Below, in pieces: positions 2,858 through 39,402 of a DNA stretch of 64,000 bases. Below the pieces are notes generated by a model that had not been told where the DNA came from, searched no databases, and saw nothing but the letters and a program-made list of their open reading frames with translations. Position 1 is the stretch's first letter, and each line of letters opens with the position of its first letter. Source of the stretch: Clostridia bacterium (GTDB lineage Bacteria > Bacillota > Clostridia > Oscillospirales > CAG-272); NCBI GenBank assembly GCA_017501225.1, contig JAFVXH010000006.1:882-64881 (forward strand), written 5' to 3'. The position numbers and the translations under genes were made by a program.

Positions 2858-2878
2858 TGGTGCGGGTAAGAGGACTTG
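2858..2878 (-). repeat. Third copy of the tRNA-Leu(CAG) 3' end (21 nt, CAAGTCCTCTTACCCGCACCA)
   Basis: Plus strand TGGTGCGGGTAAGAGGACTTG is identical to 3459-3479. Confidence 0.95.
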
Positions 2879-3159
2879 GTCTCGTCGCTACGACGCAAAG
2901 CCGAGGTTTTGATTTCGGCTTTGCTTCGCTCCTCGGTCAAGCGCGGCTCTGACAGTCCACCGGACTGTCATTCACTACCGCGCCCCTTCAAGTCCTTTTG
3001 TTCTATTCGCAGCAAACAAAAGACGGCACGCTGTTGCGTACCGTCTTTTGTTTGTGAAGGAGCGATAAAAAAGATATTTTACCTTTTTAATCGATGGATT
3101 TGAACCCAAATATAATTTAATGCTTTTCGACGGAAGGAGAAAAGCTTCCTTAGCACCTT

Positions 3160-3238
3160 TTCACTATTCACTTTTACCTATTACCTAATCGACAAGTTTC
3201 GTAAGAGAAGAGTGAAAAGTGAAGAGTTAAGAGTGAAG
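3160..3238. repeat. Two mutually inverted heptamer arrays
   Basis: TTCACTA TTCACTT TTACCTA TTACCTA (3160-3187) and AGTGAAA AGTGAAG AGTTAAG AGTGAAG (3211-3238). Confidence 0.8.
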
Positions 3239-3279
3239 AAGTAAAAATCGACAAGCTTCTGTCGAAACTTGTCGATTTT

Positions 3280-3303
3280 TGGTGCGGGTAAGAGGACTTG
3301 AAC
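3280..3303 (-). repeat. Second copy of the tRNA-Leu(CAG) 3' end (24 nt, T-loop to CCA)
   Basis: Plus strand TGGTGCGGGTAAGAGGACTTGAAC is identical to 3459-3482. Confidence 0.95.
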
Positions 3304-3420
3304 GCTCCACAAGCACCGCATAAAATGCGGCAGTCATCCAAGGTTTGGTTTTCGCGGTGCTCCATAGCGAATTTTGCAAGCAAAATCCGCGCGTGAAGAA
3401 CCGTCGGCTTTTGCCAAACC

Positions 3421-3459
3421 AACAGAAAAGGGATACGCGATGCGTATCCCTTTTCTGTT
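3421..3459 (-). terminator. Intrinsic terminator right after tRNA-Leu(CAG)
   Basis: AACAGAAAAGGGATACGC-gat-GCGTATCCCTTTTCTGTT perfect stem. Confidence 0.8.
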
Positions 3460-3545
3460 GGTGCGGGTAAGAGGACTTGAACCTCCACGAAGTTGCCCCC
3501 ACTAGAACCTGAATCTAGCGCGTCTGCCAATTCCGCCATACCCGC
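3459..3545 (-). tRNA. tRNA-Leu(CAG)
   Basis: GCGGGTATGGCGGAATTGGCAGACGCGCTAGATTCAGGTTCTAGTGGGGGCAACTTCGTGGAGGTTCAAGTCCTCTTACCCGCACCA; anticodon loop TTCAGGT, long variable arm, encoded CCA; TTGACA-17-TATAAT promoter at 3601-3573. Confidence 0.98.
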
Positions 3546-23897: not shown

Positions 23898-24413
23898 ATG
23901 AAAGACAACAATGTAGGGGCGACCAGTGGTCGCCCGCAAAGAAAAAAGAACCGTTTGGAGCATTATGATTACAGCTCCTGTGGAGCATATTTTTTGACAA
24001 TCTGTACCGTGGATAGACGAAATTATTTCTGGGAAAAAGTTGGAGAGATGATAGATTGTCCGGAAGATGTTAAATTATCTCGATATGGCGACATTGTTAA
24101 TGAAGCAATTCAAAAGATCTCCTCTGTATATCCCGCATTATTGGTTGAAAATTATGTGATTATGCCAAATCATGTGCACTTGTTATTGAGGACTTGTGTC
24201 GATGAGTGCGGGCGACCACTGGTCGCCCCTACAATGTCACGGGTGGTGAATCAGTTGAAAGGATACGTTTCTAAACGAATAGGAAGCACGATTTGGCAGA
24301 AATCATTTCATGACCATATCATACGAAACATCAAGGATTATGAGGAACATATAAAATATATCTACGAAAATCCAATGCGCTGGTCTTATGATGAACTGTA
24401 TTCGGAGGAATAG
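23898..24413 (+). mobile_element. REP-associated tyrosine transposase (RAYT, IS200/Y1 HUH superfamily)
   Basis: RLEHYDYS..GAYFLTICT, YVIMPNHVHLL (HUH), WQKSFHDHIIR, YIYENP (catalytic Tyr). Confidence 0.92.
23912..24233. repeat. Perfect 27-bp inverted pair of GTAG-type REPs inside the RAYT ORF
   Basis: TGTAGGGGCGACCAGTGGTCGCCCGCA (23912-23938) and TGCGGGCGACCACTGGTCGCCCCTACA (24207-24233); each has a GGGCGACCA-n-TGGTCGCCC hairpin. Confidence 0.92.
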
Positions 24414-38726: not shown

Positions 38727-38819
38727 GGAGAGATGGCTGAGCTGGTCTAAGGCGCACGACTGGAAATCGTGTGTTCGGCTAATAACCGACCGGGAGTTCG
38801 AATCTCCCTCTCTCCGCCA
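38727..38819 (+). tRNA. tRNA-Ser(GGA)
   Basis: GGAGAGATGGCTGAGCTGGTCTAAGGCGCACGACTGGAAATCGTGTGTTCGGCTAATAACCGACCGGGAGTTCGAATCTCCCTCTCTCCGCCA; promoter TTGACA-17-TATGAT at 38684-38712; terminator 38820-38860. Confidence 0.98.
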
Positions 38820-38995
38820 AAAACAAAGGCATCACCCAACAGGGAGGTGCCTTTGTTTTTGATGGAGAGCCGGTTGCGAGAATGCCCCGCATTTGCCAAA
38901 TGACAGAATGAGATCTTGGTATACAAAAGGGGCAAATGCACACGAGCAGAGGCGGACAGGACACCGCCGTCGCGCCGCAGGCGTGCTGCGAAGTT

Positions 38996-39022
38996 GAGTT
39001 CAGAATCTCCCTCTCTCCGCCA
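38996..39022 (+). repeat. Second copy of the tRNA-Ser 3' end with a 1-nt insertion in the T loop
   Basis: GAGTTCAGAATCTCCCTCTCTCCGCCA versus GAGTTCGAATCTCCCTCTCTCCGCCA. Confidence 0.93.
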
Positions 39023-39056
39023 AAAAATCCAACTCTAAGGAGTTGGATTTTTTCAT

Positions 39057-39245
39057 TTGTGCCGAGGGCACAACATCATTTGACCGGAGGTCAACATCGT
39101 TTCGGAGCGAGAAGTTGCTTCGCAACCTCGCGAGAACATCATTGCCGTGTTACGGCACAAATGAACGATGTTGCGACAAGTCGCAAATGATGTGCTTCGC
39201 AATGATGTGATGCTTCGCATCAATGAAGTTGCGCTCCGCGCAAAC
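39057..39245. other. Branched palindromic element (AACATCAT / ATGATGT units, each followed by a short hairpin)
   Basis: AACATC(A/G)T at 39072, 39093, 39135; complementary A(C/T)GA(T/A)GT at 39166, 39187, 39202, 39223; internal hairpins such as TTGACC-gga-GGTCAA and TGCGAC-aa-GTCGCA. Confidence 0.75.
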
Positions 39246-39382
39246 GGAAAGCGGGCGGTGCCTTTGTTTTTTGTGGAAAGAAGCACACGATGAAGAGCTC
39301 CGCGAATTGTCGCTTGCGGCAATTACGCCATAGCGTGCGCATAGATAAATAAGGGATTAAGGGCGCACGGTCGCGCACGCTT

Positions 39383-39402
39383 GAGTTCCGAATCTCCCAT
39401 CT
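39383..39402 (+). repeat. Third, degenerate copy of the tRNA-Ser 3' end
   Basis: GAGTTCCGAATCTCCCATCT, with an extra base at the same T-loop position as copy 2. Confidence 0.7.

Follow-up and report, generated by a model that had tools for sequence, protein, structure and literature searches.

Exclusively behind its tRNA-type genes, a genome of gut Clostridia carries short modules without any gene, which share one architecture, show an invariable anomaly in the copied T loop, and have two tRNA-derived pieces, x′ and NNN, that co-vary with the local tRNA. The repeating period reads [x, terminator, x′, two hairpins, TT-NNN-TTC-N], and the next x comes directly after it. Here x is tRNA positions 57-76, the terminator is a locus-specific hairpin, x′ is an inverted copy of the 3′ part of the tRNA, and NNN is tRNA positions 51-53; the best-preserved piece of x′ is its inner part, GAA followed by the reverse complement of NNN, or GAA+rc(NNN). 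How can such a sequence come to stand in register behind so many tRNA genes? We give roughly an even chance to the answer that these are miniature non-autonomous integrative modules, which enter a tRNA gene at the T loop and regenerate the tRNA.

tRNA genes are classic landing sites of mobile DNA, and the users of such sites are, to our knowledge, kilobase-scale elements with an integrase of their own. A gene-less module of about 200 nt at most tRNA loci of a gut Clostridia genus, with an invariant one-base anomaly at the presumed crossover, is of another kind, and no published description of it was found in full-text searches of the literature or in Rfam. If mobile, the modules would be among the smallest site-specific elements known and would show how an attachment site gets re-matched to new targets; if they serve the host, they would be an unrecognised layer of tRNA-locus organisation. 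Either way, they have practical consequences: they give rise to pseudo-tRNA tails, interrupt assemblies at tRNA loci, and may pass for the scars of islands when genomic islands are predicted.

The tRNA-Ser(GGA) locus of the window

The window is the whole 64,000-nt stretch of DNA that was analysed, and the features of this locus lie on its plus strand. An intact tRNA-Ser(GGA) gene with an encoded CCA occupies 38727-38819 (ARAGORN; Rfam RF00005, 55.4 bits), and its positions 57-76, the x of the locus, are at 38800-38819. The terminator tA, AAAACAAAGGCATCACCC-AACA-GGGAGGTGCCTTTGTTTTT at 38820-38860, has a stem that reaches outward, leftward into the end of the tRNA and rightward into x′, and forms inverted repeat I1 (arms 38810-38837 and 38842-38869, 86% complementary). 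The x′ of unit 1, TGATGGAGAG at 38860-38869, is an inverted copy of the tRNA 3′ end CTCTCCGCCA and matches it at 8/10 positions; the equivalent x′ is perfect over 14-16 nt in the relatives L003, L012 and L026. The core of unit 1 at 38870-38993 is hairpin-rich and non-coding, ends in ...CGCCGCAGGCGTGCTGCGAAG, and is provisionally called 'type B', a grouping based on three loci only; ends like those of this core are seen in L003 (Ser-GGA) and L029 (Ser-GCT). The right end of the unit at 38994-39002 consists of TT, GAG (identical to tRNA positions 51-53), TTC and an extra A at 39002, after which an exact direct copy of x, CCA included, stands at 39003-39022. This copy belongs to an exact 24-nt direct repeat (D3, 38800-38823 = 39003-39026), and is read as the displaced former 3′ end of the tRNA. 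A second terminator, tB, follows at 39022-39053 (AAAAAATCCAACTC-TAAG-GAGTTGGATTTTTT; I5, with 14-nt arms that are 100% complementary).

Between units 1 and 2, at 39054-39250, lies a 'zipper' of nested inverted repeats, a separate repeat family dispersed in the genus, with multiple copies in G004, G018, G023 and G036. Partial copies of it are also present in this genome, G000 (C8:15323, C10:43780 and C16:53786), and the tRNA-Ser genes in L008 and L011 are trailed by hairpin arrays similar to it. Unit 2 starts at 39253-39272 with the right arm only of a tA-like terminator, GGGCGGTGCCTTTGTTTTTT, which is part of the 28-nt repeat D2 (38842-38869 and 39253-39280, 86% identity). Its x′ at 39272-39301 is decayed and reads TGTGGAAAGAAG...GATGAAGAGCTC, where the tRNA-derived expectation is TGGCGGAGAGAG...GATTCGAACTC; the inner GAGCTC has one mismatch to GAA+rc(GAG). 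The core at 39302-39381 is of type A by covariance model R1 and alignment A1, with hairpin 1, GCGAATTGTCGC-TTGC-GGCAATTACGC, at about 39302-39328 and hairpin 2, AGCGTGCGC...GCGCACGCT, at 39332-39381, and the R1 match extends over 39286-39397 of the window (100.5 bits, E 1.2e-23). The right end at 39381-39389 consists of TT, GAG, TTC and an extra C at 39389, and leads into a decayed copy x*, at 39390-39398, which reads GAATCTCCC and then diverges with ATCT (D5). The unit as a whole is decayed, and folds no better than shuffled sequence (z = -0.16).

A preliminary description of this locus had pointed out what the two units have in common, and the pieces that it named are there. The terminator right arm GGTGCCTTTGTTTTT occurs exactly at 38846 and 39257, and the shared right end TTGAGTTC-N-GAATCTCCC is found in two exact copies, one at 38994-39011 with A as N (39002) and one at 39381-39398 with C as N (39389), against 0 occurrences of either expected from dinucleotide-preserving shuffles. 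The real tRNA reads GGGAGTTCGAATCTCCC, and both copies have one extra base in the T loop, as had been stated, which lies between C56 and R57; the interiors of the two units are indeed unrelated in sequence. The left-end word that it listed, (A/G)TGGA(G/A)AG, turns out to be the reverse complement of the tRNA's own CTCTCCGCCA, and gives with the terminator a 28-nt inverted repeat (I1, I2). Its interpretation of a shared generating process holds; what it overlooked is that the left end derives from the tRNA end by inversion, that unit 2 is one of a conserved hairpin family, and that the units stack in register. Another candidate, a tRNA mimic with a Ser acceptor stem, found no support: the 'GGAGAG' start is the inverted copy, which also pairs with the CCA and is decayed in other units, and x′ is too decayed to make an acceptor stem. 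ARAGORN called no tRNA inside the units, and Rfam 15, when searched with the window and five well-preserved loci, matched genuine tRNAs and tmRNA alone.

Extent and variation of the modules

The genome G000 (1.74 Mb in 23 contigs, 95.5% complete) has 40 ARAGORN tRNA genes plus tmRNA, and each tRNA tail was compared with its own downstream flank. At 15 tRNA-type genes, direct tail copies begin 120-180 nt past the tRNA end, with scores of 12-24, where the 95th percentile of the null is 10-12. Three more genes, Gln-TTG, Arg-CCT and Trp, were recognised by inspection, with an x′ that is perfect over up to 16 nt, which brings the number of tRNA-type genes with modules to at least 18. The genes concerned include tmRNA, His, Arg-ACG, Ala, Val, Glu-CTC, Glu-TTC, Gly-CCC, Trp, Gln-TTG and Arg-CCT, and modules stand behind more than half of the evaluable tRNA-type loci. 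In tRNA operons (Met-Glu and Gly-Arg-His) they are found at the last gene only. The size of a module is about 150-250 nt, typically 200 nt, with no ORF in the units inspected, and local duplication within arrays is seen at L051, L018, C22 and C15.

The type A core reads GCAAATTGCCGCyTGCGGCAATT..ATAGCGTGCGC-(25-35 nt)-GCGCACGCTT. Model R1 finds it 12 times in G000, 11 times beside a tRNA-type gene and once at a contig edge, and in 36 of the 41 genomes from the genus, none of which has more than 15 copies; among 151 genomes across the order, only three have matches, G000 included. The carriers are metagenome-assembled genomes of uncultured gut and caecal Clostridia, Eubacteriales or Oscillospiraceae. 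About 60 further type A copies were collected, and every one with enough flank stands behind the tail of a tRNA or tmRNA; in about 40 loci the right arm lies at +127 to +144 nt.

Is the disruption of the T loop systematic, as the preliminary description had proposed to test? The junctions were collected from 48 distinct type A units with an identified neighbour, which belong to 12 different genes (Glu-TTC, Lys, Arg-ACG, Val-CAC, Gly-CCC, Ala, Ser-GCT, Ser-GGA, Ser-CGA, His, Glu-CTC and tmRNA), and the native 7-nt loop is present in none of them (0/48). One extra base follows TTC in 43 (T 25, A 16, C 2), two extra bases in two, and the remaining three are too diverged for strict alignment, with +1 by eye. 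Architecture and anomaly are thus shared by a large number of tRNA and tmRNA loci, both in this genome and in others of the genus, and a common process does generate the junctions. In L049, L055, L056 and L060, the extra base is the sole difference from the tRNA across 26 nt, and the pseudo T arm is kept even where the acceptor part has decayed. NNN is identical to positions 51-53 of the local tRNA in 46 of the 48 units. Co-variation of x′ was scored by a motif count; shuffled generic local alignment proved too weak. GAA+rc(NNN) just before hairpin 1 is exact in 14 of 27 units and has at most one mismatch in 22 of 27, and the non-cognate motif scored 0/54. The data favour the view that the extra base is a fixed part of the right end of the module (TT-NNN-TTC-N) rather than a random scar.

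Other core families follow the same rule or a near variant of it: His has +A, Trp +T, Met (C18) +T, Glu-TTC (C5) +A, Leu-CAG +C at positions 52/53, Leu-TAG +TT and Pro +2, and Gly-CCC and Ser-GCT in G000 have a mismatched stem instead. At tRNA-Leu(CAG) in the window (2858-3545, minus strand), there are two further exact tail copies, the first with +C between positions 52 and 53 and the second with the 5′ half of the T loop replaced. Another family linked to tRNA tails is also seen there, at about 3100-3280 (minus strand) of the window, and again at C9:28900-29060 and at the contig end of C4 in G000. Its parts are, in order, a terminator, several CTTCACT-like heptamers in a row, the terminator arm for a third time and then GTAATAGGTAA..GTGAATAGTGAAAAGG, and it follows tail copies of Leu-CAG, Met and Gln-CTG.

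Well-preserved units are predicted to fold into a three-way junction (z-scores -3.3 to -5.5), in the basal stem of which the inner x′ would pair with NNN-TTC-(N)-RAATC; the extra base is bulged in three of four preserved units in the predicted fold, and is mirrored in the x′ of some units (G000 Arg, L018a). Pairing in hairpin 1 is maintained across many different sequences, and hairpin 2, with 9 bp, is conserved in sequence and is strand-swapped at Glu-TTC on C5. The outer x′ is often badly decayed in units with a perfect x.

Comparison of related genomes, which the preliminary description had called for, reveals differences of whole periods. HGM12691 and RGIG3976 (G176) differ reciprocally by one period at two loci. 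At tRNA-Arg(ACG), L040 has one extra period next to the tRNA, with an unrelated terminator, in comparison with L043, and behind this period stand, intact, the 3′ end and the terminator found behind the tRNA in L043; at tRNA-Ala(GGC) it is the other genome that has the extra period (L087 versus L035). Whole periods with their own terminators have thus come or gone in register with x, and each such difference may be a gain or a loss by x-x recombination. A simple tandem duplication of a single segment, which had been named as what would overturn the idea of a common mechanism, is rejected by the unrelated cores of units 1 and 2 and by the unrelated terminators of the extra periods. Content and copy number of the arrays vary between close relatives, and tRNA-Ser(GGA) has no module in relatives L004-L006. 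A single metagenome scan for polymorphism at the exact tRNA-Ser(GGA) locus gave one contig (L046), with the same tRNA in a different neighbourhood and no module.

Two other arrangements were seen beside such arrays. In L032 (G017:C68:1400-12200), a 9.6-kb carbohydrate-use cluster (ROK regulators, GH2, GH28, SIS and a GDSL lipase) downstream of tRNA-Ser(GCT) has on either side a type A unit with x and terminator, in nearly the same sequence both times, and contains no integrase. In G000, contig C8 begins with a perfect fold-back palindrome centred on the terminator of tRNA-Gln(CTG) (C8:1-160), most likely an assembly artefact at the hairpin.

Possible origins of the modules

How might a period come in? 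If the modules are integrative, a period would insert itself in register into the tRNA gene, at the T loop or immediately 3′ of it, and would give the tRNA a new 3′ end and terminator, while the former 3′ end and terminator would be pushed downstream. Arrays would then be built by repeated entry together with local duplication and deletion. The extra base would be the last base of the module's own right end and not a product of decay, and it abuts the left side of the tRNA-identical block, so that it always goes along with the displaced copy and is kept out of the working tRNA. Both the form of the mobile intermediate and the enzyme we infer: a candidate intermediate may be a small circle or a folded single strand in which x′ is paired with x, by analogy with attC and CTXphi sites. 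Models that need a long x′/x duplex are weakened by the decay of the outer x′ in units with a perfect x. Alternatively, DNA taken up by the cell might be exchanged through homologous recombination, with the conserved tRNA as the anchor. A point against the integrative reading is that one core family at 12 tRNA-type genes needs re-matching of x and x′ to each target. The nearest relatives of a core are mostly found at the same tRNA in other genomes (0.82-0.91), so re-matching to a new target looks rare; the exception is one clear cross-target pair of cores within G000, Ala and tmRNA (0.83).

No recombinase tied to the modules was found in G000, where four tyrosine-recombinase matches could not be linked to them, and searches for a free or circular copy, or one borne by a phage, plasmid or viral contig, gave no matches. 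An attP origin from phages, plasmids or viruses was rejected on the same searches of phages, plasmids and viral contigs, and reverse transcription or tRNA-primed copying was rejected as G000, at its 95.5% completeness, has no RVT_1 match. Elements with large serine recombinases that target T loops do exist in G000 and in the genus, which speaks for the integrative reading; no link from them to the modules could be made. One such element, with two large serine recombinases, sits in the T loop of tRNA-Met on different contigs of G000, at C19:1-1763 (attL) and C9:29063-33362 (attR at C9:29063, GGGCAATGAAAAATCCCACCCCCGCAACCC), and a partial inverted T-arm copy lies about 150 nt after the tRNA.

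A bolder form of the integrative reading is tentative and rather doubtful. The modules might be a hitherto unrecognised, gene-less class of mobile elements defined by their fold, with an attachment site built from the tail of the host tRNA. On single-stranded DNA, the pairing of x′ to either the direct copy or the T arm of the tRNA gene would recreate and mark the crossover point, the extra base would be an extrahelical nucleotide that determines strand or direction, and the element could be re-aimed at any tRNA or tmRNA sharing T-arm bases 51-56.

The prevalence and conservation of the modules could equally reflect host function. We deem it unlikely, if worth serious attention, that they are structured DNA or RNA maintained by the host downstream of highly expressed tRNA genes. 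They might back up the terminator in a BIME-like manner, control topology or insulate; they might act as read-through RNA whose x′ pairs with the tRNA 3′ half, or as a decoy landing pad for T-loop-targeting elements; and the pseudo T loop of 8 nt would be retained to prevent treatment of the copy as a tRNA arm. Such a role would suit the occupation of more than half of the evaluable loci, and cores at the same tRNA are 82-90% identical between genomes next to completely diverged terminators. Likewise, the pseudo T arm outlasts the acceptor part, and in L031 a serine-recombinase element sits inside the x copy of a unit and not in the tRNA. The pairing of the hairpins also survives sequence change, but template switching can keep hairpins paired without selection, which counts against a host role (PMC8794818). 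Moreover, there is no space for a promoter between the T-run of the terminator and x′, no Rfam family matches, and many copies are clearly decaying, unit 2 of the window included. The variation in copy number and array content among close relatives, and the module-free tRNA-Ser(GGA) genes in L004-L006 and L046, also speak against maintenance by the host.

Could the modules have arisen just where they stand? Template switching at terminator and T-arm hairpins, quasi-palindrome extension, duplication of the tandem-inversion type and unequal crossing-over might make such arrays without any discrete mobile unit, and extension and homogenisation of arms through template switching are documented (PMC13100816, PMC8604942, PMC8794818), in favour of such an origin. 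Perfect palindromes of x, terminator and x′ are indeed found (L003, L012 and L026; Gly-CCC, Trp and Gln-TTG in G000), also as a solo palindrome without a core (L010/L027), in some arrays a core is flanked on either side by duplicates of terminator and x′ (Ala in G000; L024; L025), and the mirroring of the extra base of x by the x′ of some units (G000 Arg, L018a) points in the same direction. Still, we regard a purely local origin as improbable: it cannot make the unrelated new terminators of the extra periods in L040 and L087, it cannot put one conserved core family behind 12 different genes, and from it one would not predict that +1 is universal and confined to one position.

A direct repeat of a tRNA tail starting in the T loop is the classic signature of attR. 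The modules might accordingly be ordinary att-site scars, left by large integrase-bearing islands or prophages in tRNA-Ser that were then almost wholly deleted, and it is true that their direct repeats resemble attR and that real serine-recombinase elements use tRNA T loops here, as at tRNA-Met. However, independent deletions would not give the same size, two hairpins, a TT-NNN-TTC-N end and a fixed x′ each time, and similarity to phages, plasmids or viral contigs was not detected, so this reading is already disfavoured and appears very improbable to us.

Barely credible is single-strand HUH transposition, by which REP- or PATE-like modules would be moved by the RAYT beside tRNA-Leu(CAA) or by an IS200/IS605 TnpA, with the inner x′ as a guide that pairs with NNNTTC, and with the target cut behind TTC and the element behind TTCN. 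It would account for the extra base, the lack of a duplicated target, the use of one strand throughout and the co-variation of NNN, a hairpin does stand about 9-10 nt before the module end, which is the geometry of IS608, and the window does contain a RAYT-like gene that has HUH and YxxxNP motifs. Yet RAYT is found in 18 of the 41 genomes of the genus versus modules in 36, genomes rich in modules (G017 with 15, G005 with 12, G024 with 11 and G021 with 7) have no RAYT, RAYT is widespread in the order as a whole, in which type A hardly occurs, and it has GTAG-type REPs of its own. In addition, the best Y1_Tnp match in G000 has 19.7 bits, below the Pfam cut-off of 23, the left and right hairpins are dissimilar, and the cores are never found at other GTTC sites. 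RAYT was thus rejected as the mobilising enzyme, as its distribution does not follow that of the modules. The RAYT-like gene itself is at 23898-24413 (plus strand) of the window, directly after tRNA-Leu(CAA), and has HVH and YIYENP motifs (Y1_Tnp, 19.7 bits); its frame contains two inverted copies of a GTAG-type REP, GTAGGGGCGACCAGTGGTCGCCC, at about 23913-23937 and 24211-24236, and the same type of REP is seen elsewhere in G000 and in L043.

Comparison with known systems

If the modules are integrative, to which of the known systems do they come near? Integrases of the tyrosine and large serine types that carry islands and prophages into tRNA and tmRNA genes reportedly fall into classes by the sublocation of integration between the T loop and the 3′ end, as Williams is said to have described in 2002. 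As with these elements, the tRNA is regenerated, the displaced 3′ end makes a direct repeat from the T loop on, and elements stack. An intact tRNA with a direct repeat on the far side is found in the window (38800-38823 = 39003-39026) and at 15 or more loci of G000, and polymorphism, as gain or loss, is bounded at the repeat (L040/L043 and L087/L035). Unlike these elements, the modules measure about 200 nt, have neither an integrase nor any other gene, possess an inverted tail copy, two conserved hairpins and one core family at 12 or more genes, and showed no related phage, plasmid or viral sequence. CIMEs are cis-mobilisable, att-flanked remnants without recombination genes, described for streptococcal ICEs. 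They too are gene-poor, with att-like repeats at the 3′ end of a conserved gene, tandem accretion and presumably an enzyme acting in trans, but they are kilobase-scale derivatives of identifiable ICEs, whereas the modules are conserved miniatures for which no parent was detected.

REP and BIME arrays, and REPINs with RAYT, resemble the modules in their alternating inverted repeats with two kinds of conserved linker, in their position downstream of genes, in tandem arrangement and in hairpins. In contrast to them, the 'REP' of a module is the tail of each tRNA and thus locus-specific, only tRNA-type genes are used, and there is no correlation with RAYT; a dispersed shared REP with a 5′ GTAG is absent, and type A stands beside tRNA-type genes only, with tRNA-specific arms. 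As for the PATEs of IS200/IS605, hairpins 1 and 2 and the terminator are mutually unlike, and Y1_Tnp stays below the cut-off. There remain the folded single-strand recombination sites, attC of integrons and CTXphi attP(+), to which the resemblance is one of form only. No IntI was identified and no dif-like site is evident for the modules, the bulge is absent in some units and the outer stem is often decayed; within this limit, the modules and these sites seem to have in common an imperfect palindrome whose fold recreates a duplex site, an extrahelical base (in the modules a predicted one), strand specificity, and a structure that is better conserved than its sequence.
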